Origin: Eubacterium sp.
Lineage (GTDB): Bacteria > Bacillota > Clostridia > Lachnospirales > Lachnospiraceae
NCBI GenBank assembly: GCA_017514785.1
Contig: JAFWIO010000055.1
Coordinates: 18,311 to 82,310 of the forward strand
Direction of reading: 5' to 3'
Length of the DNA stretch: 64,000 nt
Numbering within the stretch: position 1 is the stretch's first letter; every line of letters starts with the position of its first letter. Shown here in pieces: positions 1-20,776 of this stretch. Under the pieces are notes generated by a model that was given only the letters and a program-made list of their open reading frames with translations, searched no databases and was not told where the DNA came from. The translations under genes and the position numbers were made by a program.

Positions 1-201
1 TTCTTTATCCACATCGTAGTCTTCTACTATCTGATCTATAATCTCTTCTTCTGACTTTCCAGCTGCCACACCTTCCCAGATGTCCTTTCCAGTGTCGTTT
101 AGTTTAATCATCCCAGAAAAACTTTCGCTAGCTTCGCCCGTAGCCACTACTACGCACTGTCCCATTATATCTCTTACTACAAAACCGTCTTTAATCTTCA
201 T
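1..201 (-). CDS. PqqD family protein / RiPP recognition element (5' part; runs off window edge)
   Basis: Not in ORF track. Manual translation from ATG at 201: MKIKDGFVVRDIMGQCVVVATGEASESFSGMIKLNDTGKDIWEGVAAGKSEEEIIDQIVEDYDVDKE..., the typical stand-alone PqqD pattern (LNxTG..IW, I...YDV). Start overlaps the stop of the upstream kinase-like gene. Confidence 0.85.
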   Translation of the reverse strand, partial: MKIKDGFVVRDIMGQCVVVATGEASESFSGMIKLNDTGKDIWEGVAAGKSEEEIIDQIVEDYDVDKE

Positions 202-943
202 TCTTACTATTCTCCCAATCTTCTCCAGTCAACTGTTCAAAACTACACTTAGCAGCATCTTCCGAAATATCGCATTTCAACTTATAAAACGGAACTGCCT
301 CTGCCATCTTCTTAAACAGGTCAACCACCTTAATCAAATAGTCCGGCTCATCCGCCAAATAAAGTTGACTCATAAACAGCTCGATGTTCTCGCCCGGATG
401 AATGCTCTCGATAGAGTTTGACTCTGCTCTCTCTACCACGCACACCCCCGCCAAAGGAGCGCTAGTGTTAATCTGCCATCCTTCTTTGCCGCACCATGGT
501 GCTCCGTGCACATACACTTTTCCCTCTTCAAAGGAAACCTCAGGCTTATCTCCGTTTATAACACTTACCTTATCTCCTAGGAACCTCTTCCACAAAGAAA
601 TGTGTGTGGACTTTCCAGTTCCACTAGGCGCCGTAAAGATATAAGCCTTTCCTTCGTATTCGATAGTTGCTCCGTGCATTAGAAGCATACCGTGGTTTGG
701 AAGATCTGTCGCAATCTTTTCCATGATACAACAAAACTCGATGTATCCTGGATCCTTGCTAGGCAAATCCTCTTTAGTCCATCTATTAAAAACTTCATCA
801 GTATAAGAAACCTGATAAACATTATCAGATTTCTTATCTTCATCAATAATATACTCGCTAAACTTTTTCTCAAGATATGAGTATTTATATTCTATTTCAT
901 ACTGGATGCCAGCAATCTGGCATAACATCTTTTTATTATCCAT
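191..943 (-). CDS. HPr kinase-like P-loop protein (type found in lasso/PqqD clusters)
   Basis: LLMHGATI...IFTAPSGTGKSTH Walker A, INGDKP and HGAPWCGKEG motifs; 250 aa. Confidence 0.7.
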   Translation of the reverse strand: MDNKKMLCQIAGIQYEIEYKYSYLEKKFSEYIIDEDKKSDNVYQVSYTDEVFNRWTKEDLPSKDPGYIEFCCIMEKIATDLPNHGMLLMHGATIEYEGKAYIFTAPSGTGKSTHISLWKRFLGDKVSVINGDKPEVSFEEGKVYVHGAPWCGKEGWQINTSAPLAGVCVVERAESNSIESIHPGENIELFMSQLYLADEPDYLIKVVDLFKKMAEAVPFYKLKCDISEDAAKCSFEQLTGEDWENSKNED

Positions 944-1409
944 CGATTAGTGGTCCAAATCCTGGTTCATCATCTTTGTCTTTCACGTCAAAGTTTCCAC
1001 CTTTGTCGCTTTTTTTGTCACCCTTTTTACTGTCACCTTTTTTGCTACTACCTTTTTTGCTGTCACTCTTCTTTGAGCTCTTACTTGATTTGCCGTTCTT
1101 TGATGACTTGCCGTCCTTAGATGATTTATTATTATCTTTATCGTTTACCAAATCGTTAACATCATCGCCATTGCTCTTGTCAGCATTGTCCACGTTAACA
1201 TCTGATTTCTTTCCCTTTATTACTTTTCCGTTTTTATCAGTCTGAGCAGGAGCGTCTTCATTCACGCTAGTAATCACATTACCGTTCGCATCTGTCACTT
1301 CTGTTTTCTTTTCATTATTACATCCACAGCCTGCAGTTGAAAACACTAAAACAACAGTAGACACAGCTACTATCATTACTCTAATCCTACTAATCTTCTT
1401 TTTATCCAT
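936..1409 (-). CDS. Lipoprotein with K/S/D low-complexity linker and C-terminal GFGPLIDG tail
   Basis: Basic N-terminus, hydrophobic stretch, lipobox-like TAGC; stop overlaps kinase start. Confidence 0.7.
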   Translation of the reverse strand: MDKKKISRIRVMIVAVSTVVLVFSTAGCGCNNEKKTEVTDANGNVITSVNEDAPAQTDKNGKVIKGKKSDVNVDNADKSNGDDVNDLVNDKDNNKSSKDGKSSKNGKSSKSSKKSDSKKGSSKKGDSKKGDKKSDKGGNFDVKDKDDEPGFGPLIDG

Positions 1410-1462
1410 AACTAAAACCTCTCAATCAATTATAATCTACTACAATAGATTGATAAAAAATC

Positions 1463-1490
1463 AAGCACCACATACGAATATGTGATGCTT
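1463..1490 (-). terminator. Rho-independent terminator after small peptide genes
   Basis: AAGCA-c-CACATA-cgaa-TATGTG-a-TGCTT hairpin followed by a T-run on the minus strand. Confidence 0.75.
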
Positions 1491-1517
1491 GTTTATAATC
1501 TTATATCTAGTCTGTAA

Positions 1518-1658
1518 TTAGTTATTGCCAGTCAAATCGCCAATATCATCTCCGTCGCCGTTATCATAATTATCCAACTCACCACTATCTTTAAGTGTAG
1601 TGATAGAAGCGTTAATTAGAAGAATCTCAGCTTCAGGATCTTTATAAAACTTTTTCAT
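1518..1658 (-). CDS. 46-aa putative RiPP precursor-like peptide A2 (MKKFYKDPEAEILLINASITTLKDSGELDNYDNGDGDDIGDLTGNN)
   Basis: Manual translation; AAGGAG RBS upstream; YxxP leader motif, SG, acidic Gly-rich C-half; below ORF-track cutoff. Confidence 0.75.
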   Translation of the reverse strand: MKKFYKDPEAEILLINASITTLKDSGELDNYDNGDGDDIGDLTGNN

Positions 1659-1730
1659 AACTATCTCTCCTTCTTTGCAATATAGTTATCTCAAACATCA
1701 TAACTATAATAGCATACGTTTATTTTTATT

Positions 1731-1859
1731 TCAACCATCGATTAGAGGGCCAAAACCTCCACCCGGTTGAGTTTCATCATCGCCACTCTGAACATTCCAA
1801 CCACTTTTCATATTATCTATGAAATACATTTCCATTGTAGGGTCTTCATATTCTTTCAT
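1731..1859 (-). CDS. 42-aa putative RiPP precursor-like peptide A1 (MKEYEDPTMEMYFIDNMKSGWNVQSGDDETQPGGGFGPLIDG)
   Basis: Manual translation; GGAGG RBS 7 nt upstream; YxDP leader shared with A2; C-terminus matches the lipoprotein tail. Confidence 0.8.
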   Translation of the reverse strand: MKEYEDPTMEMYFIDNMKSGWNVQSGDDETQPGGGFGPLIDG

Positions 1860-1919: not shown

Positions 1920-3614
1920 TTAATTTTGTGGGTATACACCCGAAGTTCCTTCCACTGTAGTTCCATCTAATGTTACATAGAATGGTGTTACATTCCATGT
2001 TGAGCTTATATCTTTATCCATTCCTCTTACAGTGTATGTAAAGAAGTAAGTTGAATCATCACTAAATACTGTAGGTAGAACTGGTTGTCCGTCGGCATTA
2101 ATCTTTGTATATAATTTCTCAACAGACTTTGTCTTTTCTGTGATTGTAGCGTCTCCATAAGTTCCTGTGAACTTAAATCCTACTGACTGATAATCCATTG
2201 AATCCAAACTACTTAGGAAACGAACTGCTGTTCCATCCGTAGCTGTCTGGAATTTTGTTCCAAGAACTTTTTCGTCGATAAACTTAGCATAAGCATATCC
2301 TGTTGTTTCTGTATATGCTGTAGTAAATCCTGCATCTTCAAAGAATCCTGCAAATATTTTTCCTTCTTTTTCTGGATATGTACCGTGAGCCTTATACTCA
2401 GTTACATCTACCATTGGTGAATTAATATTTTTGAATATTAAGTCGTGTTTTGTTGTAGTAGCTGGTGCATAATAAATTTCTACATTTACAATTGGTTTAG
2501 CTAATGTTGATCCGTAGAATAACAATCCAGCTCCCATACAATAGAATGTGTCATTATCACCCTGAGCAACATTAGTTTCTACACCATCAATTACAACCTT
2601 AGTTGGTGCTCCCATTCCATCAGGATTAAGAACATAAACACCTGCTTCTTTTTGACCTGACCAACCTGGATCTTGATAACTTATAACTTTTGTATCAGTA
2701 GCACTCCAGTATTGTAAATCATTGCTTCCTGCAACGTTTGCCCAATGGTCTGCCTCTGTAGTTGGTTCTTCAGTAGTTGTTTCTGTTTGAGACTCAGTTT
2801 CTCCAGTAGGAGCCTCTGTTGTTTCTTCTGTTGGATCTTCTGAGCCATTTTCATTCTTAATTTGGATATATGAAGTACCAAGACCTTGAGTAATAGTTAC
2901 TTCATTTATCTTCTTTGTCATTGCTGATAAGTAAACTACAAAACCAGCGCCGTCTATAGCAGCAACACCTTCTGTATTTCCGTTTACATCAACCTTTGAA
3001 ATGCCTGCAGGAACTGTAATATATACACCATCTTCTGCAGCCCAACCTGGTTTCTGAATGTTTACAACACTACTAATATTTTGCTTTGTATTATTATTGT
3101 AATACCACTGTGTTCCGCCGTTAGGAATTGATTTCCATGGACTAGCTGTAGTAGGTTCTGTTGTAGGTGCACTAGGGTCTACTGTAGTAGTAGGTCCTTC
3201 TTCACCATCTTCAAAGTAAACATAGCATGTAGTTGATCCACCTGCCCATGATACTGTAAACTCTGTTACCTTTTGAGTGAAGTTAGATAAATAAATACAT
3301 GCTCCAGCTCCCTGAACTGCATAACCAGCAAGATCCATCTGGATATCAGCAGCTGGGAAACCTATGTAAATACCGTCTTCTTCAGAAAAACCTGGATGCT
3401 GAATATTTACAGCTTGTGTTCCATTTTCTGCATAAAACTTATACTTATTAGTATAAGTTCCACCGCCTGCGCCATCGCCCAAGTAGTCGATAGTACTCCA
3501 ATCTGGTGCATCAGCTTTAGTGTCAGCAGATGGAACAAATACAAGTCCCGCAACTACCATTGCTATAGAGCAAGCAACCGCAATAATCTGCTTTGAAAAT
3601 CTTGATAATTTCAT
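1920..3614 (-). CDS. Secreted protein with three copies of an uncharacterised repeat domain and a conserved C-terminal domain
   Basis: Signal peptide; repeats VNIQHPGF..EDGIY / VNIQKPGW..EDGVY / ISYQDPGW..EAGVY with GAG; T/E/P-rich linkers. Confidence 0.75.
   Translation of the reverse strand: MKLSRFSKQIIAVACSIAMVVAGLVFVPSADTKADAPDWSTIDYLGDGAGGGTYTNKYKFYAENGTQAVNIQHPGFSEEDGIYIGFPAADIQMDLAGYAVQGAGACIYLSNFTQKVTEFTVSWAGGSTTCYVYFEDGEEGPTTTVDPSAPTTEPTTASPWKSIPNGGTQWYYNNNTKQNISSVVNIQKPGWAAEDGVYITVPAGISKVDVNGNTEGVAAIDGAGFVVYLSAMTKKINEVTITQGLGTSYIQIKNENGSEDPTEETTEAPTGETESQTETTTEEPTTEADHWANVAGSNDLQYWSATDTKVISYQDPGWSGQKEAGVYVLNPDGMGAPTKVVIDGVETNVAQGDNDTFYCMGAGLLFYGSTLAKPIVNVEIYYAPATTTKHDLIFKNINSPMVDVTEYKAHGTYPEKEGKIFAGFFEDAGFTTAYTETTGYAYAKFIDEKVLGTKFQTATDGTAVRFLSSLDSMDYQSVGFKFTGTYGDATITEKTKSVEKLYTKINADGQPVLPTVFSDDSTYFFTYTVRGMDKDISSTWNVTPFYVTLDGTTVEGTSGVYPQN
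1928..2309. repeat. Near-identical DNA copy 1 of the C-terminal domain coding region (copy 2 at about 6107-6488)
   Basis: Long exact runs shared at offset 4179, e.g. gtgggtatacacccgaagttccttccactgtagttccatctaatgttac. Confidence 0.9.
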
Positions 3615-3878: not shown

Positions 3879-5990
3879 TTATTCCGGGACTACGTCAAAG
3901 GTAGCAGTCTTTCCTGTCACTTTAGTGCCGTCTGCCGTCACATAGAATGGTGTTACATTCCAATTAGATGGAGTCGTTCCGTCCATATTTCTAATTGTGT
4001 ATGTGACAAAGTATGCTGAATCATTGTTATCGAAAGCTGTGTTTGGTCTGATTGTCACGCCGTCAGCCGTAATCCTTCGATAAACAGTTTCAATGCTCTT
4101 CGACTTGGAATCAATAGTACTTTCCCCATACGTTCCGGAGAAATCAAAGCCTGCCGATTCAAAATCTTGTAGTCTTCTACTAATAGTACTTACAAAGCGA
4201 ATAGCAGTATTATCTTCCTTCTTCTGCATCTTAACCGTCAACGCTTTCTCGTCAATAAACTTAGGGTATGCATATCCATCCTCGTCCATATATGATTCAG
4301 TAAGTGTTTCGTCTGTAAACCAACCGGCAAAGATTTTGCCTTCCATGGTTGGATATTGCCAAGGCCAAACCCACTTGTAGTCTCTTATGTTATAGTAGCC
4401 TTCTGCTTTTTCGCCGAAGACGGCTATTTCTAATGGTTGAATTCCATCGCGCTCTGAATTTTCACTCCATTCTTCAACCTCAATCTTTATATATCTCGCC
4501 TTAACATTAAGGTCCTTGGTTACTGCAGATACAGCCTTGTTATCCCACAAACCTCTAACTGAAGCTACGGGTTCGTCTCCGTACCAATCTGGTATTCTGC
4601 CTGCGTAAATATCGTAGTCAACGGCGTTGGCGTTGGACCAGCAAACCATTACATCTTCTATGTTGTAGTAGTCCTTCAAATCTATTGCAAACCATGAGTT
4701 ATCAGTTGGTTTGTTCGCTCTCCATCCCGTGTTAAGATTTCCATCGCAAAATCTTCTCGCTTGTCCTTCATTATTATAACGTGCAACAATAGGTGTTTTC
4801 TTGTAGGCAAGGTTTTCTGTTGTATTAACTTTGTTTAAGTAATCCACTATTCCGACATAATTGGAATCGTCATAAACAGCCATCTCACGCAATGAGTAGC
4901 CTTCCGGCAAATGACTTTCTGTCATTTCTATTTTAATGTACCTAGTGCTAATTGATTCACCAAGCACTATCATGTCTCTTCTGTTGTCATAGAATGAATC
5001 GTTATCAACTGTAGCCACCGGCTGGAATTCATTACCATAAGTAGAAACCATTACTGTGTATGCTTTAGCAGTATTATCTTCTGCCCATCTACAATCAATT
5101 TCTTTAACTGTCTTTACTTCACCCAAGTCCACAGTAATCCACTGTGTATCATCTCCACTGGCATTCCAAATAGTATTTGGATCAGCATCTATAACATATG
5201 ATGCATCATCCGCCGAAGCTGCAGCTGTCACTCCTTCTACGGTTGCGCCTTGTTGTGTAACTAGGTTTACGCCATTATCATTTGAATCCGGAAACTCCTC
5301 GTAATATGAAACATAACTGTATTTGTAATTATTAGGATTCACCTCTGGCTCTGTAGTTGGCTCTTCAGTAGGTGCTTCAGTTGGAGCCTCTGTTGGTGCT
5401 TCTGTGGTCTCCTCTGTTGGAGGAACTGCTGTAGTGACATTCTCTTCATATTTTGTGTAGTAGTAAGCGCCATCTGACACCTGAACATATCTCTTAGGGC
5501 TCTCGTAATACTGCGCAGGTGTATCATCCGTTAGCACTTTGTATTGTATCGAAAACTGAACATCTCCATCTAATTTGAATCTGAAAACATTGGTGAACTG
5601 ATCCTTCTGTTCGAAAGCATTCTCATGATTCATGACAGAGTCCGTAACATCAATCCAATAGCTTCCGCTCTTCTTTTCCATGGATGTAACGTTATCAAGA
5701 GTACTACCATTAATTCCAACGACCTCTAGCATTTCCTTTCCGTCGTGCAACTGGCCATTTTCACCATCAATATGTACATCTGTCTTTATGTATAAGTAGC
5801 CGCCTGATAATTCGCCACTATTATTAAGCTGACTTCCAACGGCATAGCTACCATTCTCCTGCGCCAAATACAATGCTGCCGCTCCCGGAATGTCTGCACC
5901 ACCCGGATTCCAAATATCACCATAACTAGGCACAATAAAAACAGCGACTAATGCCATGATAGTTATCATTGTTATTAATCGTTTTTTCAT
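3879..5990 (-). CDS. Secreted protein with two F5/8 type C (discoidin/CBM32-like) domains and the shared C-terminal domain
   Basis: Signal peptide; DADPNTIWNA..QWITVDLG..RYIKI and DGNLNTGW..WFAIDL..RYIKI motifs; TEAP repeats. Confidence 0.8.
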   Translation of the reverse strand: MKKRLITMITIMALVAVFIVPSYGDIWNPGGADIPGAAALYLAQENGSYAVGSQLNNSGELSGGYLYIKTDVHIDGENGQLHDGKEMLEVVGINGSTLDNVTSMEKKSGSYWIDVTDSVMNHENAFEQKDQFTNVFRFKLDGDVQFSIQYKVLTDDTPAQYYESPKRYVQVSDGAYYYTKYEENVTTAVPPTEETTEAPTEAPTEAPTEEPTTEPEVNPNNYKYSYVSYYEEFPDSNDNGVNLVTQQGATVEGVTAAASADDASYVIDADPNTIWNASGDDTQWITVDLGEVKTVKEIDCRWAEDNTAKAYTVMVSTYGNEFQPVATVDNDSFYDNRRDMIVLGESISTRYIKIEMTESHLPEGYSLREMAVYDDSNYVGIVDYLNKVNTTENLAYKKTPIVARYNNEGQARRFCDGNLNTGWRANKPTDNSWFAIDLKDYYNIEDVMVCWSNANAVDYDIYAGRIPDWYGDEPVASVRGLWDNKAVSAVTKDLNVKARYIKIEVEEWSENSERDGIQPLEIAVFGEKAEGYYNIRDYKWVWPWQYPTMEGKIFAGWFTDETLTESYMDEDGYAYPKFIDEKALTVKMQKKEDNTAIRFVSTISRRLQDFESAGFDFSGTYGESTIDSKSKSIETVYRRITADGVTIRPNTAFDNNDSAYFVTYTIRNMDGTTPSNWNVTPFYVTADGTKVTGKTATFDVVPE

Positions 5991-6098: not shown

Positions 6099-8726
6099 TT
6101 AGTCTTGTGGGTATACACCCGAAGTTCCTTCCACTGTAGTTCCATCTAATGTTACGTAGAATGGTGTTACATTCCAATCTGAATTTGTATCAGGATCCAT
6201 TCCTCTTACAGTGTATGTGAAGAAGTAAGTTGAATCATCACTAAATTCTGTAGGGAAAACATCTTTTCCGCCGGCATTAATCTTTGTATATAATTTCTCA
6301 ACAGACTTTGTCTTTTCTGTGATTACAGCATCTCCATAATGTCCTGTGAACTTAAATCCTGCTGACTGATAATCCATTGAATCCAAACTACTTAGGAAAC
6401 GAACCGCTGTTCCATCAAGAGCTTCCTGGAACTTTGTTCCAAGAACATCTTCGTCAATGAATTTAGCATAAGCATATCCTGTTGTTTCCATATAAGGTGT
6501 TGTGCATGCTGAATCCTCGAACCATCCTGCAAAGATCTTTCCAGCCTTTGTTGGAGCTGTAGCAGGTGTAGTTGCCTTGTATGGTGTTACATCCATATAT
6601 TCTGGAAGTTCCTGTCCATCATATACAGCCATTTCGAAAATTGAGTGGCCCCAGTTAGTTGTTCTAGCTGTATCATAAATACGTACATATCTACCACTTA
6701 CTGTATTTGCAAGAACAATAGTATCTCTTCTGTTTGCGCCTGAAGCTGCGCCGTTTACAATACCTACTGTCTTAAAGTTTGTTCCGTCTGTTGAAACTTG
6801 AACTTTGAAGTCTTTTGCACTAGCAGTCTCCCACCAAGCATCAACTTCCTTAATTGTCTTAACTGCGCCAAGGTCTACGCATAGCCACTGTGGGTCACTT
6901 GCTGAAGCTTCCCAACGTGTTCCAGGTTTGTAGTCAATAGCATTGGTAGCATTTCCATTTGAAGCTGTTGCTGTTACACCCGAAATTGTAGCACCGTTTC
7001 TTGTGATAAGGTTGAAGCCATTCTCATTTGTGTCATCATACACGCCTGTGCCTGTATCTGAACTGTATGTGAATCCATCTGATACTGCCACGTCTGCAAC
7101 AGTAAGTCCAGTTGATAGGAATCCATCTTTGTATGATTTAACTGTAACATCATATGAGCCTGCTTCCACGCCGTCTAATCTATAGTCTCCTCCAGTCAAG
7201 CCTTCTGCTGCCAAGTCTCCGTCCAAATATACATTCCATGTATATCCGTCTTCGACCTGACCTGTGTCTGGAGTGATTGTTCCTGTGATTTCGTTGTAGT
7301 CGTCTGATTCAGCTGTGAATCCTGCTGGATCGTCCACAGTTTCTACTGGAGCAAGTTCTGCGTCTCCATCTATATCATAAACACCAAACTCTGTAATCTG
7401 TGCACCATATGCAACTGCGTTAGGGAAATATACTCTAACGTATCTAACCGCGCCAGATGAAAGATTTGAAACATCACCTGTAATCAAGAATGGATTAGTT
7501 TGTGATCCTTTTTGTGCTGAGAACTCTGATTGTGTCAAAGTAGCAACATCTGTAAAGTCAACTCCGTCTGTAGAATACTGGAACTTCATTCCACCATTTT
7601 CTGGATAAGTTCCACCTACATTAGATCTAAACCAAACTGCTAGTGTTTCAAAACTTGACGCTTTCCATGTATCAACTAAATCGATTGTGAACCATGAACC
7701 AGCTTGTCCTTTTGTAGCTGTTGAATATGCGCTGCTTGAAATCACGCCGTCTGTAACACTACCGTTTCCTTCTGTTGAAGAACCACTGTCCATTGTAAAT
7801 GTCTTTTGATATCCATAATTCCAAGTAGGATCTGTTACCTTTGTCGCATACGTATTAACTGTAACCTGATTTGAGTTAATACCAGGAGAAATTGCTCCGT
7901 TGTAATGTGACTGAACAAATACTGTGTGGTCTCCGCCAACTACATCATATGTGTAATCAACGCCTGCCTGACAAGTTGCATTCAACAACTGTCCATTAGG
8001 ACTATCTAAGTTTGCAGAATATACATAACCTTCTTGGTCTTCTCCTGCTGTAATGTTAAATGTAATCTGTCCTAGATCATTTGATGAAGCCGTAACTGCT
8101 GCTGGATCAGCACACGTCTCAACAGGTGCCAACTCTGGATCTTCAGCCAAAACTGCAATCTCAGTTAACTGAATTCCGTATGTTGGAACTGTTGGATAAT
8201 CAATCTTGATATATCTAACTCTTCCCGTGTAACTTGAAACATCATTTACTGTTGCTTTGCTATCTTCCAAATCAGCTGCTGCCATTGTTCCTGATGTGTA
8301 TACAGTATCCCAATTAACCAAATCATCTGAATACTGGATGTTGTATGTTCTGCCTACTACTGTATCATTGTCAGCATAATCTTTATAAGCACAAACAATC
8401 TCATCTAGAGACTCAGACTTATAAATGTTTCCTAAATCCAAAATAGCATAAGCTTCTCCACTGTAGCCCCATCCTGATGACATGGCACAGGCTCCACTGA
8501 AGTTACCATTTGTAAGGTTAACTTTATTACCTTCTGCTACTCCAGGATAAACTGTTGCTGCACTGTTAAGTACCATGTTCGTCATAGTACCGTTACCTGC
8601 AATACTGTCAATCTCATCTTGAGAAAGTGTAGCCGCATCTACCTTTGCAGCGCTAAACATAAACCCTGAGAATACCATAGATAAACTCAATGCTATCGCT
8701 AGAGTTCTTCTAATAATTTTCTTCAT
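6099..8726 (-). CDS. Secreted protein with about three F5/8 type C-like domains, FN3-like spacers and the shared C-terminal domain
   Basis: Signal peptide; AILDLG..RYIKID, WFTIDL..RYVRVY, TRWEAS..QWLCVDLG..GRYVRIY motifs. Confidence 0.8.
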   Translation of the reverse strand: MKKIIRRTLAIALSLSMVFSGFMFSAAKVDAATLSQDEIDSIAGNGTMTNMVLNSAATVYPGVAEGNKVNLTNGNFSGACAMSSGWGYSGEAYAILDLGNIYKSESLDEIVCAYKDYADNDTVVGRTYNIQYSDDLVNWDTVYTSGTMAAADLEDSKATVNDVSSYTGRVRYIKIDYPTVPTYGIQLTEIAVLAEDPELAPVETCADPAAVTASSNDLGQITFNITAGEDQEGYVYSANLDSPNGQLLNATCQAGVDYTYDVVGGDHTVFVQSHYNGAISPGINSNQVTVNTYATKVTDPTWNYGYQKTFTMDSGSSTEGNGSVTDGVISSSAYSTATKGQAGSWFTIDLVDTWKASSFETLAVWFRSNVGGTYPENGGMKFQYSTDGVDFTDVATLTQSEFSAQKGSQTNPFLITGDVSNLSSGAVRYVRVYFPNAVAYGAQITEFGVYDIDGDAELAPVETVDDPAGFTAESDDYNEITGTITPDTGQVEDGYTWNVYLDGDLAAEGLTGGDYRLDGVEAGSYDVTVKSYKDGFLSTGLTVADVAVSDGFTYSSDTGTGVYDDTNENGFNLITRNGATISGVTATASNGNATNAIDYKPGTRWEASASDPQWLCVDLGAVKTIKEVDAWWETASAKDFKVQVSTDGTNFKTVGIVNGAASGANRRDTIVLANTVSGRYVRIYDTARTTNWGHSIFEMAVYDGQELPEYMDVTPYKATTPATAPTKAGKIFAGWFEDSACTTPYMETTGYAYAKFIDEDVLGTKFQEALDGTAVRFLSSLDSMDYQSAGFKFTGHYGDAVITEKTKSVEKLYTKINAGGKDVFPTEFSDDSTYFFTYTVRGMDPDTNSDWNVTPFYVTLDGTTVEGTSGVYPQD
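6107..6488. repeat. Near-identical DNA copy 2 of the C-terminal domain coding region
   Basis: Matches 1928-2309. Confidence 0.9.
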
Positions 8727-8969: not shown

Positions 8970-10241
8970 CTAATCAATTTTAAGTCCTTTGAGCAGTTCC
9001 TTCTTATAATTGCTTTTGTCCATATCACTCTTTAGCGACTTGATTGGATTCTTCCTGCCGAGGCCCTTTCTTGCATATCTACCCGTCTGGTACGCCCACG
9101 CCAAAGGCCTTAGCGCCTTGTGCTTTCTGGCTGCCTCCCAGTGAGTGAGTCCAAGCCTCTGGAGCGATCCAATCATTGTGAAAACATTTTTGTTTCTATA
9201 TAATACGCCTGCGCCTTCGTCGGCGGCGGTTTGCTTTGCACCGAAGTTGCCGGATGCTAAGATTTGTTCCATCCACGCGGTAGCCAGTTTGGCAATTTCA
9301 TTTTGCTCTTGCTCTGCTGCTTCACGCAATGTGGTGGCTGGTGTAGTTCCTTTGCACCAGGCGATGCTTTTATCTAGGCCAAGGTGCATTTGACCCATGC
9401 GCGCGAAAACGATGGCCGCATCCTTTAGGCTGACCTCATCCAAGTACTGCTCGTAAGTCTCTTGCCAAGCGCGGTCGTCCACATGCTTTTCCACAAACTG
9501 CATCCAATCGATCACATGGCGAAGCCCCACGCCCTTCGACTGCCCAGTATGCTGAATGATATGGCGAAGAATTATAAGGCCGTTCAGTTTCTCCTCAAAC
9601 ATCGGGAACTCGTACTCGCCCACCTGGCCGGTCTCGATGTGATCCATTCCTTCTTGGATAAGCGCCTCAATCTTTGCGTCTGTCTCCTTGCCCTGCACGG
9701 TGTCGGACATACGTCTGTGAAGTTCAAACGTCACCCCGTTCTTCTTAAGCTCCACGTGATGATACTTCTCATCCTCCAGGTGCATCTGCCCCTTTGACGC
9801 GTCCGCTGCAAAGTCATATCCATTCTCCCTAAGGAGTTCATATGTTTTATCGAAGTCTTGGGCGCGGACGAAAAAGTCCACGTCGCCCATCGAACGGTAG
9901 TCGGGCTTTGGATAATTCATGGCCGCCGCACTACCCTTTATGATGGCAACCGGAATATCGTTGTCCTGTAGAAGCTTTACGAGTTTAGTCTGCGCTTCCA
10001 TAAGTTTGGTCCACTCCGCCACTTGGCTGTAAACCATCACCGTCCACTCCTGCTTTAGTTCCTCTAGCGCATCAACATTTTTCACCATATACTCGAGCGG
10101 TATACCTAAAATAGACTGGTCAGATAATTCTTCAAAAACCTGATCCCAGTCTATGTTTTCTGGCAGTTTAAACTCTGCACCACTACTCTGGTGCAAAGAT
10201 AAGTTTATTAATTTGAAAATTGTGGTTTGTAGGTTATTCAT
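8970..10241 (-). CDS. Nucleotidyltransferase family protein (NTP_transf_5-like, lasso/PqqD-cluster type)
   Basis: IIKGSAAAMNYPKPDYRSMGDVDFFV motif, FELH, GLRHVIDW. Confidence 0.85.
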   Translation of the reverse strand: MNNLQTTIFKLINLSLHQSSGAEFKLPENIDWDQVFEELSDQSILGIPLEYMVKNVDALEELKQEWTVMVYSQVAEWTKLMEAQTKLVKLLQDNDIPVAIIKGSAAAMNYPKPDYRSMGDVDFFVRAQDFDKTYELLRENGYDFAADASKGQMHLEDEKYHHVELKKNGVTFELHRRMSDTVQGKETDAKIEALIQEGMDHIETGQVGEYEFPMFEEKLNGLIILRHIIQHTGQSKGVGLRHVIDWMQFVEKHVDDRAWQETYEQYLDEVSLKDAAIVFARMGQMHLGLDKSIAWCKGTTPATTLREAAEQEQNEIAKLATAWMEQILASGNFGAKQTAADEGAGVLYRNKNVFTMIGSLQRLGLTHWEAARKHKALRPLAWAYQTGRYARKGLGRKNPIKSLKSDMDKSNYKKELLKGLKID

Positions 10242-10788
10242 TACTATGATTTCTTTTTTTCAGTTTTATCTCATTAGATTTGTTTCCATGTTTCTTAAAT
10301 GCGTTTTTAGGCAACTTATTCCAAAACTTTTTAAAATCAAACTTACACATTTCCAAGCGAGCGGGTAGATTGTTGCATTTTAATAAGTCCGACTTATAAT
10401 TAGTATTGGTTTTGCTCCTTGTTAGTTCTTTTACTTCTTTAATCTGACACGCTCTAACCAATTCATCTTCCAAATTTTCAACCTGCGGAATACACACCAC
10501 TTTTTTTACATTCTTTTTTGATTCAAGATACTCTATATTCCACTTCAAACATGGCTCTCCTTCTGAACCTCTGTCAGTGTCATAAACAAGTATTACTATC
10601 GTATTGCTTTTTATTCCTCTTGCTCGCATATTACTAAAATGCTCTTGGGTAACATTGAAAACTTCAACTTTACCATGTTGGATAAACTTAAAATCCTTTT
10701 TCAGAACATCTATTATTTTTTTATCACCTTCGCCTTCTACATAATACCTATAAATATTATTTCTACTCACTGTTATTCCCCCCCTCAC
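10234..10788 (-). CDS. RloB/TOPRIM-like protein, partner of the upstream ATPase
   Basis: YVEGEGD at the N-terminus and VYDTD (TOPRIM-like E...DxD); 4-nt overlap with the ATPase stop. Confidence 0.5.
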   Translation of the reverse strand: MRGGITVSRNNIYRYYVEGEGDKKIIDVLKKDFKFIQHGKVEVFNVTQEHFSNMRARGIKSNTIVILVYDTDRGSEGEPCLKWNIEYLESKKNVKKVVCIPQVENLEDELVRACQIKEVKELTRSKTNTNYKSDLLKCNNLPARLEMCKFDFKKFWNKLPKNAFKKHGNKSNEIKLKKRNHSNE

Positions 10789-11882
10789 TTCGCAATGTCT
10801 GCTATATCATATATTTTTTCGACATTAGGTGATGTTGAAAAGACATCATTATCCAATGCATTTCTAATTGAATCAGTATTCTTTTTTAGATAATCTGATG
10901 CATTTACATATTCAATTTTATTCGCTCCATCTTTATCTTTTTTCAAAAAACAAAAGGAATGATTAGGCAAATCCATTTCAGCCACATCAGAATTATGTGT
11001 AGTAAAGAATAACTGTCCACGTTCTGATAATTTTTCAATCATTAAAGATAAACATGCAATTTCAATATCTGAATTAACATACGTAAATAGTTCATCACAG
11101 TAGTAAAAATTATGCATTCCACATATCATAGATGCTATTGAATATGCAATCTTAAATCCCATTTTTGTACCGCTTGAAAAAATCTTTTCCCCCTTAACAT
11201 CACCATCTTGTATCAAGACAGAGTGATTATTAAGCTTTATTAAGTAAGTGTTTTCAACGTCCATAACTTTATGTACTGATTTAACAGCTGGATCCAATGT
11301 TTTCATTATTAGTCCTAGAACTTTAATATATTCTTTTTCCTCTATAGACTTTATTGAATCAACTATTCTATGCCCATATTGAAAGCACCATCCCGGAACA
11401 GGAATATCCTTATAATCTATTTCTTCTCCTTCTCCTTCATCTAATCTTTTAGCACATGTTTCGTAGTTGTCATTTTGATTGATGGAAACAAACTCCAATT
11501 TTTTATCACATATTTTTTCTTCCTTATCATCTTCTTTGTTTATTTTAGTTTTAAGAGTGAAACGATATAAACGGTTATCCCAAGCAACAAAGTCAACACA
11601 TAAATGCGCCCATTTTCTCTCATCAGTAATATGATCTGCAAATCTGTAGGCATTCCCGTCTCTCAAAAAATTTGCAAACCCCATTAATAATTCGCCTAGT
11701 GTTGTTTTGCCCGTAGCATTACTCCCCATCAAAATATTAACCTTTCTGTATCTGAAATTAGGTCTACTCTTCAAGTACTCTCCTTCTACGGGTGTATTTA
11801 CAACTTTTTTAGGGTATGACATATTCATATAAAACTTTTTGAAAGCATATAAATTATCAACTCCAATATTCATAATAATCAT
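10785..11882 (-). CDS. ABC-type AAA ATPase (AAA_21/RloA-like)
   Basis: Walker A GSNATGKTT, signature FSSGTK, Walker B YCDE, H-loop TTHN. Confidence 0.8.
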   Translation of the reverse strand: MIIMNIGVDNLYAFKKFYMNMSYPKKVVNTPVEGEYLKSRPNFRYRKVNILMGSNATGKTTLGELLMGFANFLRDGNAYRFADHITDERKWAHLCVDFVAWDNRLYRFTLKTKINKEDDKEEKICDKKLEFVSINQNDNYETCAKRLDEGEGEEIDYKDIPVPGWCFQYGHRIVDSIKSIEEKEYIKVLGLIMKTLDPAVKSVHKVMDVENTYLIKLNNHSVLIQDGDVKGEKIFSSGTKMGFKIAYSIASMICGMHNFYYCDELFTYVNSDIEIACLSLMIEKLSERGQLFFTTHNSDVAEMDLPNHSFCFLKKDKDGANKIEYVNASDYLKKNTDSIRNALDNDVFSTSPNVEKIYDIADIAK

Positions 11883-12341: not shown

Positions 12342-13463
12342 TTATTCTTCGCCCAAATACTCCATAAAGTTTTCTTTATTCTCACGCGCTGTCGTGGTAG
12401 GTCTCCCTAAATCATCTCTCGCACCGATAGCACACTTAACTTCAATAAAACTCAACTCATTCTTATCTTTAGCATCTAGCAATGCCTTATCCAAATCATC
12501 CATATTATCAACAGAACAGTAATTCGGATATCCACAGGCCTCAGCCATCTTTACCATATCTACATCCGATGCTACTGTAGGCATTCCACCAACTGTTTCA
12601 TGAGCCCCATTGTTTATTACGATATGAACCATGTTGTTTGGTTTATTTGCTCCAACCACTGCCATTGCACCGAGGTGCATAAGTGCAGATCCGTCGCCGT
12701 CCACGCACCAAACCTTTTTATCTGGTTTGTTAAACGCAACTCCTAACGCAATTGAACTAGTATGTCCCATCGAACCGACAGTTAAGAAATCATATTTATG
12801 ACTTTGACCATTGCGTTCTCTTATCTCAAAAAGTTCACGGCTTGCTTTTCCTGTGGTTGAAACGATTGGGTCTTCGCCGCTCACTTTTACAATATGCTCT
12901 ATTATCTCCTCGCGTATCAGAGAATTATCATTAGAATACTCAATCTGGCCATCATACTCTAGCGCACCTTTTCTAACAACAAATGCCACGCACTTTCCTT
13001 CATCAAGAGTTTTTCTAAAGCTACTCATAACTTCTTCTAACTCTTCATCTGTGGTATCCTTCGAAATAATAAACGAATCTATTCCCATATCATCAAGTAG
13101 CTTTACTGTTACTTCGCCTTGGTAGATGTGCTGTGGTTCATCATGAACCCCTAGTTCACCTCTCCATCCAATTACAAAAACGACCGGAATAGAATAAACC
13201 TGATCATTCAATAACGACGCTACTGGGTTAATGATATTTCCTTCGCCGCTGTTTTGCATATAAACAACAGGCACCTTTCCTGTAGCCAAATGATAGCCTG
13301 CCGCCAACGCTGTGCAGTTCCCCTCATTCGCTGCAATCACATGATGTTTTGAATCGATGCCATATGTGTTCATCAAATAGTTACATAGCTGTTTAAGCTG
13401 TGAATCCGGAACTCCTGTATAAAAGTCCGCACCTATAGTATTTACTAATGTCTCAATCTTCAT
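12342..13463 (-). CDS. aepY: Phosphonopyruvate decarboxylase
   Basis: FYTGVPDS, AANEG, YMQNSGEGN, HDEPQH, GSMG, DGDG ThDP motifs; in operon with PEP mutase. Confidence 0.93.
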   Translation of the reverse strand: MKIETLVNTIGADFYTGVPDSQLKQLCNYLMNTYGIDSKHHVIAANEGNCTALAAGYHLATGKVPVVYMQNSGEGNIINPVASLLNDQVYSIPVVFVIGWRGELGVHDEPQHIYQGEVTVKLLDDMGIDSFIISKDTTDEELEEVMSSFRKTLDEGKCVAFVVRKGALEYDGQIEYSNDNSLIREEIIEHIVKVSGEDPIVSTTGKASRELFEIRERNGQSHKYDFLTVGSMGHTSSIALGVAFNKPDKKVWCVDGDGSALMHLGAMAVVGANKPNNMVHIVINNGAHETVGGMPTVASDVDMVKMAEACGYPNYCSVDNMDDLDKALLDAKDKNELSFIEVKCAIGARDDLGRPTTTARENKENFMEYLGEE

Positions 13464-13475
13464 AATAGCTATCCT

Positions 13476-14588
13476 TTAATCTAGGATCTGATGATATATC
13501 ATATCAATAGTTTCTTCTGTTAATTTAACCGGATGGTTTTTTAGTCTAGTAGCATTTACTGAACTAACCAACTCTTTAAAATCCTCTTCCTTCGCCGAAG
13601 GTTTCGGCAAATCTAGCTCACTAACAATTTCTTCAATTTTATCAGCCATCTCTGCTTGGTTTTCGCACCCCATAGTGTTTGCCATCTCATCAAAAATATC
13701 TGACAAAAATTCCTTGCCTCTACTATCAATGCATAAATCCAAATTATTAATCATAAATGGAATTAATTTAGAGTCACAAAGTGCTGCTGCATGACCATGA
13801 GCTATTCCATAAAGACTCGTAAGTTTATAACACATCGCGTGGCCAGCTGTAGTTTGTGTAATATTGATTGCCTTTCCAGCTATGTGTGAAGCCTCAAGCA
13901 TCTTCTCATTTGCACCAGGGTCATTTTGCAAATATCCATCTTTGTTCTCAAGAATTAGCTCAAGCGCCTGTTTCGAATAATCCCTACTCTTCTCATTACT
14001 ATTAACAGACCAAAAAGATTCAACTGAATGACAAAGCGCGTCCAGCATAGTTGATTTCTTTTGATAATCTGGAAGCGTCTCCAAAGCCGACGAATCAAAA
14101 ACAACGACCGATGGAATGCAACTATCATCTGCAACAGATTGCTTCACTCCTTCGTAATAGATCACCGCAAACTTTGTGGCCTCGCTGCCAGTGCCTGCTG
14201 TGGTTGGCATCGCCATCAACTTAACATTATTAGGAACAATCTCCTGATCTAAATAGTTGATCGAATCATCCATATTTGAATAGAGTTTGATGCACTTGGC
14301 AACATCCATTGCGCTTCCTCCGCCCACGGCAAAGATAGCATCGCACTCTTCTTTATGAAAAACTTCCACACCTTTTACCACTGACTCATACAATGGATTC
14401 GGTTGAAAGTCACTAAACTTAACAACTTTTATTTCATAATCATTCTCTAGTGAATCAAAAAAATCTTTTACTTTTAAAAACTGCAACGATTCATCACACA
14501 CTAATAAAAGTTTGCTCAAATCAAGACTTGCCAAGTAACTGCCAAGTTCTTTGTAATCGCCATTTGCTTTTATAATATGCTGGTTCAT
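13476..14588 (-). CDS. Iron-containing alcohol dehydrogenase, probable phosphonoacetaldehyde reductase
   Basis: GGGSAMD, PTTAGTGSE, DALCH..E, GHAMCY, HGHA; lies between pepM and ppd. Confidence 0.85.
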   Translation of the reverse strand: MNQHIIKANGDYKELGSYLASLDLSKLLLVCDESLQFLKVKDFFDSLENDYEIKVVKFSDFQPNPLYESVVKGVEVFHKEECDAIFAVGGGSAMDVAKCIKLYSNMDDSINYLDQEIVPNNVKLMAMPTTAGTGSEATKFAVIYYEGVKQSVADDSCIPSVVVFDSSALETLPDYQKKSTMLDALCHSVESFWSVNSNEKSRDYSKQALELILENKDGYLQNDPGANEKMLEASHIAGKAINITQTTAGHAMCYKLTSLYGIAHGHAAALCDSKLIPFMINNLDLCIDSRGKEFLSDIFDEMANTMGCENQAEMADKIEEIVSELDLPKPSAKEEDFKELVSSVNATRLKNHPVKLTEETIDMIYHQILD

Positions 14589-14599
14589 CTTAAGCTCCT

Positions 14600-16653: not shown

Positions 16654-18024
16654 CTATTTTATTTCCATTTCCTTCAAGTATTCCTTTGTCATAAAAACAC
16701 AAAAGTATGGAAATGTGTATATATTATTTGCAACCCCTATATTGCAATCTCCAAATTTAATACCATGCTTTATATCACTATACTTATCGCTATTTATTAA
16801 AGTTGTCAATGATTTAGATCTATCATTATTTGATTTGACTTCAACCGGTATCAATTCTTCAGTATTTCTTACAAAGAAGTCTTCCTCTAGAGTGGAATTA
16901 TCTCTCTTGTAATAATACAGACCAAGTCCCTGTTTCACAAATGCTTCTGCCACAAAGTTTTCGTACAAAGCTCCCTTGTATACGCCTAAATTTTTATTTG
17001 CTCTAAGATCTTCTTGCGACTCCTCATCTAGAGCTGAAACTAGCAGCCCAGTATCCGGATAATACAACTTATATTTAGCGTCATCAGCATTTCCCTTTAG
17101 GGGCAATTCTGGATATGCCAAACAATCACATTTTACAATCACGCCTGAATCAATCAACCATTCTATACACCCTGTATATTCACGTGATCTTGCATTGCGA
17201 CTAATCTTGCTAAATTGAAACTTCTTATTCTCTTTAGCAAGTTGCGCGGGAATACTTCTATATACACTGATAATTTTTGTCTGGTCAAGACCTTGCGCAT
17301 ATTTTCTAACATCTTCTTCATAATCTAATCTAATCTGTTCTTGTTCACTTAATGAAAAAGAGAATGTTTTGGTTGTAACAAATGTCCTTACAACATCTGG
17401 CATTCCACCCAGAACGCAGTATTCCAAAAAAAGAGTTTTATAAACATTCATTTCTGTTTCATTAAAAGGAATATTGCAAACCATATGATTAAAGATATTA
17501 CTTATATGCTCATCTGTGTAACCTCTAGCCCACAAGAACTCTTCAAAGTCCATAGAATACATTTGATAGTCTGTCTTGTTACCTACACTATTACTATGTA
17601 TTTCTTTATAATTTATTCCCAATGTAGAACCACTACAAATGACATCATAGCGTCTATCAATATTAAAAGATTTGAGCGAAGTTGCTACATCTGGATAATC
17701 TTGAATCTCATCAAAAATGATAACTGTATCATTTTCTACAAACTCCTTGGTAGGATCTGCTATCGTGATATTTTTTACTACTGTTTCAACATCATACCCA
17801 TCACTTACAATGGTTTTAAACTTCTTTTCAAGCGCAAAATTAATATAAACTACATTTCCGTAGTTATTCTTTGCAAAATGCATAATTGATTCTGTTTTTC
17901 CAATCTGTCTCGCGCCTTTAACTATTAGCGGTTTATGATTTGGATCATTTTTCCAATTATCCAAATAATCGTCAATTTTTCTCCTCAAATACATAATATC
18001 ACCTCTTAATTCGGAGTTTAACAC
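16654..18024 (-). CDS. AAA_14 ATPase with DUF4143 domain
   Basis: GARQIGKT, IFDEIQ, KLYYPDTGLL, GALYENFV, PVEVKS; likely start at MYLRRKID. Confidence 0.85.
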   Translation of the reverse strand: MLNSELRGDIMYLRRKIDDYLDNWKNDPNHKPLIVKGARQIGKTESIMHFAKNNYGNVVYINFALEKKFKTIVSDGYDVETVVKNITIADPTKEFVENDTVIIFDEIQDYPDVATSLKSFNIDRRYDVICSGSTLGINYKEIHSNSVGNKTDYQMYSMDFEEFLWARGYTDEHISNIFNHMVCNIPFNETEMNVYKTLFLEYCVLGGMPDVVRTFVTTKTFSFSLSEQEQIRLDYEEDVRKYAQGLDQTKIISVYRSIPAQLAKENKKFQFSKISRNARSREYTGCIEWLIDSGVIVKCDCLAYPELPLKGNADDAKYKLYYPDTGLLVSALDEESQEDLRANKNLGVYKGALYENFVAEAFVKQGLGLYYYKRDNSTLEEDFFVRNTEELIPVEVKSNNDRSKSLTTLINSDKYSDIKHGIKFGDCNIGVANNIYTFPYFCVFMTKEYLKEMEIK

Positions 18025-18052
18025 AAAAAAATAGGCTTTTCAATGCTTATTT

Positions 18053-18119: not shown

Positions 18120-18132
18120 TTTTTATTCTATT

Positions 18133-20747: not shown

Positions 20748-20776
20748 ATATCTCTCCTATGTTATGATATGTCATT

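Follow-up and report, generated by a model that had tools for sequence, protein, structure and literature searches.

In a 64,000-nucleotide stretch of contig JAFWIO010000055.1 (assembly GCA_017514785.1), hereafter the window, which stems from a rumen Lachnospira/Eubacterium-like member of the Lachnospiraceae, a lipoprotein gene lies beside two genes for short precursor-like peptides, pepA and pepB, within a cassette resembling those for peptides synthesised by the ribosome and altered after translation (RiPPs). The lipoprotein, termed the anchor, was found to carry copies of both predicted peptide cores, and these tethered copies track the free peptides in about 12 lineages (identity of the cassette's kinase 48-100%) and independently in Collinsella. 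Going by its sequence, the anchor is extracytoplasmic and intrinsically disordered and holds the copies of both cores without a leader. A RiPP-type cluster with co-evolving tethered copies of its own cores is a layout without precedent in the literature searched, and it is tentatively suggested, with less than even confidence, that the anchor, tethered to the surface, stands in for the mature products and competes for or pre-occupies the producer's own binding sites. The three genes and their parts are located in the window as follows.

936-1409, minus strand: anchor lipoprotein, 157 aa, recognised from its open reading frame (ORF), its lipobox and its alignments to the peptides
1326-1409, minus strand: signal peptide and lipobox of the anchor
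1215-1241, minus strand: TDKNGKVIK motif of the anchor
1140-1205, minus strand: module B of the anchor, the copy of the pepB core, SDVNVDNADKSNGDDVNDLVND
999-1139, minus strand: polycationic K/S linker of the anchor
939-998, minus strand: module A of the anchor, the copy of the pepA core, GNFDVKDKDDEPGFGPLIDG
1731-1859, minus strand: pepA, precursor-like peptide of 42 aa, ORF with ribosome-binding site GGAGGA
1803-1859, minus strand: pepA leader, MKEYEDPTMEMYFIDNMKS
1734-1802, minus strand: pepA core, GWNVQSGDDETQPGGGFGPLIDG, with the invariant Ser25 at 1785-1787
1518-1658, minus strand: pepB, second precursor-like peptide of 46 aa, between pepA and the anchor gene, ORF with ribosome-binding site AAGGAGA
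1584-1658, minus strand: pepB leader, MKKFYKDPEAEILLINASITTLKDS
1521-1583, minus strand: pepB core, GELDNYDNGDGDDIGDLTGNN

Both the anchor and pepA end in the octapeptide GFGPLIDG (939-962 and 1734-1757), their C-terminal ends being ..DDEPGFGPLIDG and ..DDETQPGGGFGPLIDG, respectively. The codons read GGA TTT GGA CCA CTA ATC GAT GGA TAA in the anchor gene versus GGT TTT GGC CCT CTA ATC GAT GGT TGA in pepA, i.e., four synonymous and no non-synonymous differences with different stops (TAA, TGA), and the coordinates, tails, codons and synonymous differences given in a preliminary description of this DNA were thereby all recovered on the minus strand. Among the 456 six-frame ORFs of at least 30 residues in the whole window, only nine ORF pairs share a non-low-complexity 8-mer, the other eight being paralogues or their shadow frames, and the anchor and pepA form the sole pair with an identical C-terminal octapeptide, for which reason a chance origin of the match was rejected. 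The anchor stop codon overlaps the start of the downstream kinase gene by 8 nt (ATC GAT GGA TAA / ATG GAT AA; kinase MDNK..), hence the terminal Asp-Gly of the anchor is fixed. The idea that the tail is set by the kinase ribosome-binding site or start was likewise rejected, as it accounts for this Asp-Gly only and cannot explain the motif, which the peptides share at the amino-acid level only. Eleven nucleotides ending before the third base of the final codon (CTAATCGATGG) are identical in the anchor gene and pepA; they are derived and include, in the window pepA, a derived TTA-to-CTA change. In all close relatives (loci labelled L007-L010, L060 and L080; the L060 kinase is 97% identical to that of the window and the N-terminus of the L080 kinase is identical) pepA ends TTA ATC/ATT GGG TAA, i.e., ..LIG. 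Because the closest relatives end in this way, the exact identity of all eight residues is strain-specific and probably represents a strain-level event, most simply a short conversion patch; it is partly owed to the recent 11-nt patch and selection alone is insufficient for it, the match seen throughout the family being, as judged from the aligned tails, GFGPLI(D)G and not the full octapeptide. One rumen RNA contig carries a 4-nt-longer pepA allele at 1738.

The anchor N-terminus comprises an n-region (MDKKKISRIR), an h-region and a lipobox ..VFSTAG/C, and reading of the sequence identified the lipobox of a bacterial lipoprotein both here (MDKKKISRIRVMIVAVSTVVLVFSTAG/C) and in relatives (..FSGC or ..VAGC), whose place is taken by an uncleaved-looking transmembrane (TM) anchor without Cys in the L081, L084, L086, L087 and Collinsella proteins. 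Since the anchor has a lipobox or an N-in TM anchor and lacks a leader of the type bound by a RiPP recognition element (RRE), it is assigned to the extracytoplasmic side. Its last ~20 residues align with the whole predicted pepA core and an internal segment aligns with the whole pepB core, both alignments being found in every Lachnospira-type genome and each module match being significant versus shuffled cores in most genomes. Modules A and B, with a charge of -4 each, are separated by a K/S-rich linker of 47 residues with a net charge of +11. Comparison of 12 orthologues revealed the signal/lipobox region, the TDKNGKVI motif and modules A and B as the only conserved islands, while linker length and sequence vary freely. 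The proposal of the preliminary description that a disordered K/S/D linker displays a copy of the peptide core tethered to the membrane is thus upheld and extended, as both cores are copied and not the octapeptide alone. At the position aligned with the pepA Ser, the anchor has an acidic residue in most lineages, namely Asp (window group, P0131, L013) or Glu (L011/L089, L012, L086, L081); Asp/Glu at this column suggests the look expected of a genetically encoded phosphomimic, as a tendency and not as a rule.

As to the free peptides, pepA is kept in all Lachnospira-type loci and pepB, whose C-terminal end is ..ELDNYDNGDGDDIGDLTGNN, is conserved too. pepA-type cores follow the pattern G[FW][DN]V.S.DDE....GFGPLI.G, and all of them hold the Ser in an acidic context (V-x-S-DDDE). 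The leaders MKEYEDPTMEMYFIDNMKS and MKKFYKDPEAEILLIN.. (MKEYEDPTM.., MKKFYKDPEAE..) resemble, at the sequence level, published Lachnospira lasso leaders (PMC7533575). Cleavage after KS would give a pepA core with G1..D8 D9 and a pepB core with G1..D7, a lasso-type Gly start with Asp/Glu at 7-9 to which the Collinsella and L087 cores are no obvious fit; as the cores are acid-rich throughout (charge -4 for pepA and -7 for pepB), an acid at position 7-9 is uninformative for a lasso ring. A C-terminal Ser is absent, pepA-type peptides ending in G, E or W and pepB-type peptides in N, G, L, D or P. Pfam and NCBIfam gave no meaningful match for the peptides, the anchor and a 203-aa K-rich protein of the same cassette. 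A Ca-binding reading (EF-hand, dockerin or TSP3-like) of the D/N/G-rich pepB core was rejected, the spacing, by eye, misfitting the consensus loops.

For comparison across lineages, loci were gathered via the kinase, which yielded 53 reference-genome loci, 21 metagenome loci and nine further exact-protein look-ups. The C-terminal ends of peptides and anchors (kinase identity to the window in brackets) correspond as follows.

Close relatives (86-97%): peptide ..GFGPLIG, anchor ..GFGPLIDG
L011, L089 (~65%): peptide ..QWGPLE, anchor ..GWGPLEDGN
L012, L088 (~63-66%): peptide ..GFGPIIG, anchor ..RFGPIIDG(KKKK)
L013 (62%): peptide ..GFGPLIG, anchor ..GFGKLIG
L086 (53%): peptide ..TGYGSLVG, anchor ..EGYGKLVG
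L087 (48%): peptide ..QGEDNTEPDWNDW, anchor ..GEDNTDEGYIDW; pep2 DSGSWDDIFGGN, internal anchor segment DSGDWDEVLGDG
Collinsella (~36%): pep2 ..EWTGWYDLENPDQPTV (EWTGWY), anchor ..NWTGYY; pep1 SDPADNN, internal anchor segment NDPADNN

In L087 the tail pattern common to peptide and anchor is GEDNT..DW. Co-variation of the tails in orthologous lipoproteins and peptides had been put forward earlier as a test, with unshared tails as the refuting outcome, and the tails do co-vary: permutation of the genome pairing, carried out with one representative per lineage and 9 lineages, gave p = 3e-5 for the tail module and p = 0.003 for the internal module. As cross-genome pairs match far worse than within-genome pairs, independent drift after an ancient duplication does not account for the correspondence, and on the sequences the pattern is larger than first seen, encompassing two modules, many lineages and two phyla. 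Many distant ScmC loci have neither peptides nor anchor, and no convincing leader-type peptides were found in the L028, Bifidobacterium, L015, L022 and L030 loci. Low-complexity, N-terminally anchored proteins ending ..WTGYY were observed beside ScmC/PqqD cassettes in L027, L028, L031, L032, L041, L045 and L065-L068; they span Collinsella, two Bifidobacterium species and two other metagenome-assembled genomes, their bodies are unalignable, and the only peptide with the WTGYY motif is Collinsella pep2.

Codon usage within genomes documents that the amino-acid sequence is what is kept. In eight genomes, the shared six-residue motif comprises 17 identical, 28 synonymous and 3 non-synonymous codons, and in L012, where Leu became Ile in both genes, none of the motif codons is identical. 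For the deeper lineages, the matched segments hold 32 identical, 34 synonymous and 33 non-synonymous codons, with 53-72% nucleotide identity for most, and L088 and L089 show the same codon behaviour. As synonymous sites are scrambled, the amino-acid sequence is selected and recent conversion is no explanation; a fresh DNA duplication was on this basis rejected for the family and retained for the last 11 nt in the window strain. The earlier claim of selection on amino acids, and not of a fresh duplication, is therefore supported by the codon counts at the family level, but does not extend to the exact eight-of-eight match in the window, to which the 11-nt patch contributed.

Evidence for expression comes from rumen metatranscriptome contigs, which cover pepA and pepB in 4/4 runs, the anchor gene in 2/4 and kinase/PqqD in 0/4 (a contig-level count, for which DNA carry-over is possible). 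Two putative signals lie between pepB and the anchor gene.

1452-1491, minus strand: terminator-like hairpin after pepB from the terminator scan, 13-bp stem and 4-nt loop followed by ATTTTTTATC (U-tract)
1429-1456, minus strand: putative promoter-like site TTATCA-16-TATAAT upstream of the anchor gene, from a consensus scan only

The hairpin folds with -31.2 kcal/mol (z = -4.27; 0/200 shuffles as stable), and RNA coverage falls downstream of it. A terminator after the precursors together with a separate promoter is commonly seen where precursors are made in abundance and enzymes in smaller amounts.

The gene order of the cassette is secreted protein, pepA, pepB, anchor, ScmC-family protein, PqqD, an ORF of 161-163 aa, a Lys-rich secreted protein of 203 aa and, after it, the S10 ribosomal operon, whereby the part beyond the window edge was read from metagenome contigs of the same strain (L001/L002). 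Three of the presumed enzyme and carrier genes reside in the window.

191-943, minus strand: ScmC-family P-loop kinase-fold protein, 250 aa, PF27840 ScmC (precomputed), Walker A SGTGKST at 605-625
1-201, minus strand: PqqD-family RRE/peptide chaperone, truncated at the window edge; the complete protein on L001/L002 has 88 aa
8970-10241, minus strand: NTP_transf_5 nucleotidyltransferase-fold protein, 423 aa, PF14907 (E 2.8e-32), three genes upstream

The ScmC-family protein matches TIGR04249 (E 4.4e-7; 29.5 bits versus a cut-off of 125) and HprK_rel_A (E 1.5e-4), both below cut-off. Its AlphaFold2 (AF2) model reached a pLDDT of 96, and Foldseek returned 60 matches at E <= 1e-3, among them PEPCK (1.2e-6) and L. 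casei HprK/P (1kkl_B, 3e-6), while a PDB sequence search gave noise only; the modelled fold is that of an HprK/PEPCK-type P-loop kinase. Residues H90, S107-G-T-G-K111, T113 and D132 are invariant. With regard to the His-Lys-Asp-Asp motif, which is the conserved catalytic motif of lasso-tailoring HprK-family kinases (PMC9266682), H90, K111 and D132 are invariant and the residue preceding D132 is an invariant Gly (N130-G131-D132). The search identified 680 relatives at E <= 1e-10; 120/120 of the relatives listed carry PF27840, and the few of these named by a source are called 'hypothetical protein'. PqqD matches PF05402 with E 1.3e-10 as fragment and 1.9e-17 at full length, its best NCBIfam match being lasso_PqqD_Bac (E 1.1e-9; 38 bits, below the cut-off of 80) next to a weak ScmD match. 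The 161-163-aa ORF, located just outside the window, is the only peptidase-like gene at the cassette and is S26-like, as it matches TIGR02228 (endoplasmic reticulum (ER)/archaeal-type signal peptidase I) with E 2.7e-6, below cut-off, and its motifs GVSMYPML, MHRVIKV and RGDNC (S-M-x-P, H-R-V and G-D-N boxes) are kept from Lachnospira to L028 and L038. It lacks a Pfam match, a PDB sequence match and a TM segment at the N-terminus, and its location is presumably the cytoplasm. The NTP_transf_5 gene adjoins the kinase, PqqD and peptidase genes in L027, L028, L031/32 and L087 and lies nearby in L085 and L086. A lasso cyclase, B2 protease, exporter or receptor was found neither in the cassette nor among the 34 ORFs scanned against Pfam out of the 52 in the window that reach 140 aa, and no RRNPP/Phr-type TPR receptor (Rap/NprR/PlcR/PrgX/Rgg) was found in the cassette or the scanned neighbouring genes.

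Upstream of the peptide genes, three secreted proteins share a conserved C-terminal domain, here called CTD-X.

1920-3614, minus strand: secreted protein of 564 aa ending in CTD-X, immediately upstream of pepA
3879-5990, minus strand: secreted CTD-X paralogue of 703 aa with F5/8 type C domains
6099-8726, minus strand: secreted CTD-X paralogue of 875 aa with F5/8 type C domains and a Listeria-Bacteroides repeat

CTD-X comprises ~110 aa (..YFFTYTVRGM..W.VTPFYVTLDGT.V.G..), is preceded by a Listeria-Bacteroides repeat and was identified in the window, L007-L014, L041, L045, L080 and L085. Lachnospira-type loci hold 2-4 CTD-X paralogues each, always directly upstream of the peptide genes, and two Bifidobacterium loci encode CTD-X too. 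No Pfam family covers CTD-X; its AF2 model is a beta-sandwich (residues ~50-160 of the last 160 aa, core pLDDT 72-88), for which Foldseek returned generic FN3/Ig-like matches only (best E 1.4e-3). From this conserved adjacency only, we infer that the CTD-X protein belongs to the peptide system, its role as a binding partner being a guess. The C-termini of secreted proteins from Lachnospira and L028 have the Listeria-Bacteroides repeat alone in common. Word-index homology searches gave few matches, namely seven for the anchor and nine for CTD-X.

Several known systems come close to parts of this layout. The closest likeness is to the paeninodin and pseudomycoidin lasso clusters, which equally combine short precursors having an MK.[YWF]..P..E-type leader, a stand-alone PqqD-type RRE (split B1; the one here best matches lasso_PqqD_Bac, below cut-off) and an HprK/PEPCK-fold kinase with a nucleotidyltransferase-fold gene (PadeK/PsmK, PsmN). 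PadeK and PsmK place a phosphate on a Ser of the linear precursor, and this phosphate then receives a hexose through PsmN (PMC6993621, PMC9266682); known HprK-type RiPP kinases act on leader-bearing linear precursors with an 'extremely conserved' C-terminal Ser as target (PMC9266682), and of the phosphorylated RiPPs listed in a 2025 overview only the two lasso peptides use HprK-superfamily kinases (PMC12639078). An ordinary lasso cluster was nevertheless rejected, as the cassette has neither a cyclase (Asn-synthetase-like C protein) nor a transglutaminase-like B2 protease. Neither of the two was found in the 64-kb window or the inspected loci, and an S26-like Ser peptidase takes their place; unlike the substrates of lasso-tailoring HprK-family kinases no peptide here ends in Ser; unlike PadeK and PsmK the kinase belongs to the ScmC family (PF27840), HprK-related NCBIfam models being matched below cut-off; and for lasso clusters a tethered copy of the cluster's own core has not been reported. 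With the SynChlorMet (SCM) cassette, defined computationally by TIGR04248-04251, the cassette has in common PF27840 ScmC, the TIGR04249 match and a PqqD weakly matching ScmD, but it lacks the radical SAM/SPASM enzymes (ScmE/ScmF), its scores are far below the equivalog cut-offs (29.5 vs 125 bits), and the anchor protein is not part of the SCM definition; no paper on SCM was found.

LanI lipoproteins (NisI, SpaI) are folded domains that bind the lantibiotic without carrying a copy of its sequence. Like the anchor, they are lipoproteins encoded inside a RiPP cluster, and they act at the outer face of the producer's membrane with specificity for the peptide of their own cluster; the anchor differs in being disordered and in having core copies as its conserved parts, and an immunity role would here be hypothetical. 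Enterococcal sex pheromone is cut from a lipoprotein signal peptide, a similar inhibitor peptide arising from a small ORF, and Phr signals have their active part at the C-terminus of an exported precursor. Both systems parallel the present one in that related short peptides are encoded by a small ORF as well as within a lipoprotein or an exported pro-protein, but in the anchor the copy resides in the mature C-terminus, the small ORFs have RRE-type leaders and lie beside modifying enzymes, and neither RRNPP-/PrgX-type receptor nor Opp genes are encoded nearby. TapA-SipW-TasA of Bacillus subtilis is an operon with an ER-type signal peptidase, in which a segment of the surface anchor resembles the donor strand of the fibre subunit. 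Common to both systems are the ER-type (Ser/His) S26 peptidase beside a surface anchor and the anchor segment mimicking a neighbour-encoded partner, whereas the S26-like protein here is without N-terminal membrane anchor, the partners are 20-residue acidic peptides with RRE leaders, and there is no sequence similarity to TapA or TasA. Literature searches on the cassette components and on core-mimicking immunity proteins yielded no precedent, in agreement with the earlier statement that no system with such a layout had been described.

Because an S26-like protein replaces cyclase and B2 protease and a C-terminal Ser is absent, pepA and pepB are, by analogy, probably precursors of linear, acidic, phosphorylated peptides made by an uncharacterised RiPP-like cassette; given that no cyclase is present, the product would not be a lasso peptide. 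In the suggested sequence of events the PqqD-type RRE would bind the lasso-like leaders, the ScmC/HprK-fold kinase, probably together with NTP_transf_5, would modify the core, whereby the invariant Ser in acidic context is the likeliest target in pepA, the cytoplasmic S26 Ser/His peptidase would remove the leader near the conserved K-S/G junction, and the products would be exported. As the tethered copies follow the changes in the peptides while synonymous sites are scrambled, one extracellular partner probably reads both. The anchor, presumably itself no substrate of the cytoplasmic enzymes, would then stand in, constitutively and bound to the cell, for the mature peptides, in most cases with Asp/Glu for the presumably phosphorylated Ser, and might, by occupying the producer's own binding sites, act as a tethered competitor for self-protection or self-recognition. 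With the same reserve a new principle may be considered, namely that a RiPP cluster hard-wires a membrane-tethered surrogate of its own products, with both cores in tandem and Asp/Glu for phospho-Ser, the cassette constituting a new class of linear phospho-RiPPs; this, too, is a possibility held with under even confidence. If it holds true, a constitutive 'bound' version of diffusible peptides would serve self-immunity, self-recognition or the control of surface-protein docking, and RRE, ScmC kinase, NTP_transf_5 and S26-type leader peptidase without cyclase would define a class of linear phospho-RiPPs that is common among Clostridia and Actinobacteria of the gut. A product surrogate would be a new way for a producer to protect against, recognise or pre-load the target of its own peptide, a binder of the anchor modules would be a direct handle on the peptides' receptor, and the Ser-to-Asp/Glu correspondence allows the site and the chemistry of the modification to be predicted. 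In rumen and human-gut Clostridia, in Collinsella and in Bifidobacterium, the ScmC/PqqD/S26-like/NTP_transf_5 cassette occurs in abundance, often beside capsule loci and large glycan-binding surface proteins, and it may bear on the cell-surface organisation of gut commensals; matching of short ORFs to anchor sequences could moreover be used as a genome-mining signal for precursor peptides.

A number of observations weigh against the tethered surrogate. The Ser-to-acid pattern has exceptions: at this position the L084, L088 and L083 anchors carry Ser, Asn and Thr, respectively, and neither L087 nor pepB conforms to the pattern. In L081 the two tails are mismatched (pepA ..GWGPLE, anchor ..GFGPLIDGN), L014 and L085 keep the peptides without an anchor, and ..WTGYY anchors occur in L028 and two Bifidobacterium loci without detectable peptides, from which it follows that neither of the two is strictly dependent on the other. 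In Lachnospira-type loci no binding partner, receptor or exporter was found, and self-protection presupposes a threat from the peptides, which is hypothetical. The known HprK-type RiPP kinases target a C-terminal Ser, which no peptide here possesses, and phosphorylation is in this case purely inferred.

Alternatively, the anchor might be a second, Sec-routed precursor which, once exported and lipidated, is cut by surface proteases at the conserved K-(S/G)-(G/N) junctions and sets free unmodified versions of the same peptides, in the manner of Phr-type signals; each peptide would thus have two forms, the first modified in the cytoplasm, the second produced at the surface. Such a scenario, which appears doubtful, would explain why the similarity starts exactly at the predicted leader/core junction (K-S-G-F-D-V vs K-G-G-N-F-D-V) and why module A ends at the protein C-terminus, and it is consistent with the Lys-rich and hence protease-sensitive linker and with Lachnospira-type loci being without a dedicated exporter. 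However, module B runs straight into the linker with no defined C-terminal boundary, the L088 motif is followed by KKKK, the vicinity holds no cognate import or receptor genes, and the anchor's Asp/Glu at the invariant Ser fits a mimic of the modified product better. Rather unlikely is a docking scaffold, in which the two acidic/hydrophobic modules, as short linear motifs, are bound non-covalently by the Ig-like CTD-X of the upstream glycan-binding proteins and thus keep these at the cell surface, the free peptides being soluble competitors that regulate release. A CTD-X gene immediately upstream of the peptides in every Lachnospira-type locus, with 2-4 paralogues, and its presence in both Bifidobacterium loci speak for it, as do the peptide genes flanking a CTD-X protein in L013 and L014, the signal peptides of CTD-X proteins that have no recognised wall anchor, the predicted beta-sandwich and the vicinity of the cassette to capsular polysaccharide (cps)/exopolysaccharide (EPS) loci. 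CTD-X proteins persist, however, in the anchor-less L014 and L085, a motif search detected no CTD-X in large secreted proteins of Collinsella or L028, the Listeria-Bacteroides repeat alone being shared, and with a generic fold match (best E 1.4e-3) the binding is hypothetical.

The preliminary description took the shared tail for a tag serving recognition, modification or ligation; on this reading the lipoprotein is a substrate or acceptor of the kinase/nucleotidyltransferase machinery. This reading has become improbable: the similarity covers the whole ~20-residue core and not a discrete tag, a free C-terminus is dispensable (the L088 anchor ends ..FGPIIDGKKKK and Collinsella pep2 runs 10 residues past the motif), and nothing points to ligation. 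Modification of the tail by the cytoplasmic enzymes is unlikely given the Sec/lipoprotein signal, the lack of an RRE-binding leader and the mostly Asp/Glu residues at the Ser site, most anchor tails being without Ser/Thr at the peptides' invariant Ser position, and known HprK-type RiPP kinases act on leader-bearing linear precursors. In its favour, the anchor gene is translationally coupled to the kinase by the 8-nt overlap, which is kept in L007-L012, the tail motif is highly conserved, with WTGYY reaching from Collinsella to Bifidobacterium, and the L084 anchor has Ser at the candidate site. Finally, the modules might share no function with the peptides, but be remnants of precursor genes which were fused to a signal peptide and are kept alike by occasional gene conversion. 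The identical 11-nt patch of the window resembles such a micro-conversion, GEDNT of L087 is encoded by 15 identical nucleotides, and module B of L008 retains 83% nucleotide identity; yet most matched segments differ at most synonymous sites with the amino acids kept, the modules are conserved islands in an otherwise free-drifting protein, the same layout exists with unrelated sequences in Collinsella and L087, and the anchor gene is transcribed, all of which renders functionless concerted evolution very improbable.

Further observations concern ScmC-type loci elsewhere. In the distant relatives L072, L073 and L074 the ScmC-like gene follows a radical SAM/SPASM enzyme, and L074 also encodes, beside the ScmC-like gene, a Cys-containing peptide of 76 aa whose leader (MKDQYQKPQAEVIKF..) is of the same kind; because of this pairing, ScmC-like proteins are taken to serve several RiPP chemistries. 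About 20 loci (L016, L018, L023, L036-L059) hold the ScmC-PqqD-S26-like cassette without detectable leader peptides or anchor, and in this clade a conserved 220-245-aa protein with two TM segments (..DNRAYMQKQM..YVQAHVDSMYME) is encoded directly upstream. A conserved membrane peptide of ~41 aa (M..R.TAIILSVICFLIL..IFCEKKYPEAGSEL..GM...) was observed in L085 (2506-2631), L086 (8239-8364) and L014 (9122-9280), between the S26-like peptidase gene and the LytR_cpsA_psr gene opening the cps locus. The 203-aa secreted protein between the S26-like gene and the S10 operon (L001/L002; L008 4984-5595, L009 11697-12308) is conserved; it is Ig-like in its N-terminal half and extremely rich in Lys in its C-terminal half (KVKYKKVKKKKVKIKLKVKS..), a polycation that could bind the polyanionic peptides.

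Within the window, ~12-50 kb represent a capsule/EPS locus on the same strand with interleaved defence genes, and the L085 and L086 cassettes also abut a cps locus. Phosphonate-biosynthesis genes lie inside the capsule/EPS locus (12342-16609, minus strand), namely a 669-aa NTP-transferase/cytidylyltransferase/PEP mutase fusion, a TPP-dependent decarboxylase and an Fe-alcohol dehydrogenase, and their presence suggests a phosphonate-decorated surface glycan. Defence-type genes at 10234-11882 and 16654-24000 (minus strand), between the EPS locus and the peptide cassette, comprise an AbiLi-like ATPase (PADLOC E 5e-21) together with a 184-aa partner that overlaps it, PDC-S01 (E 6e-154), PDC-S06 (E 5e-235), PIN_12 and a RES-domain gene. 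An ORF of 46 aa at 25238-25378 shares fourteen 8-mers with a 213-aa ORF at 28777-29418 (minus strand, 3.4 kb apart) and looks, from its sequence, like a duplicated gene fragment within the EPS locus.

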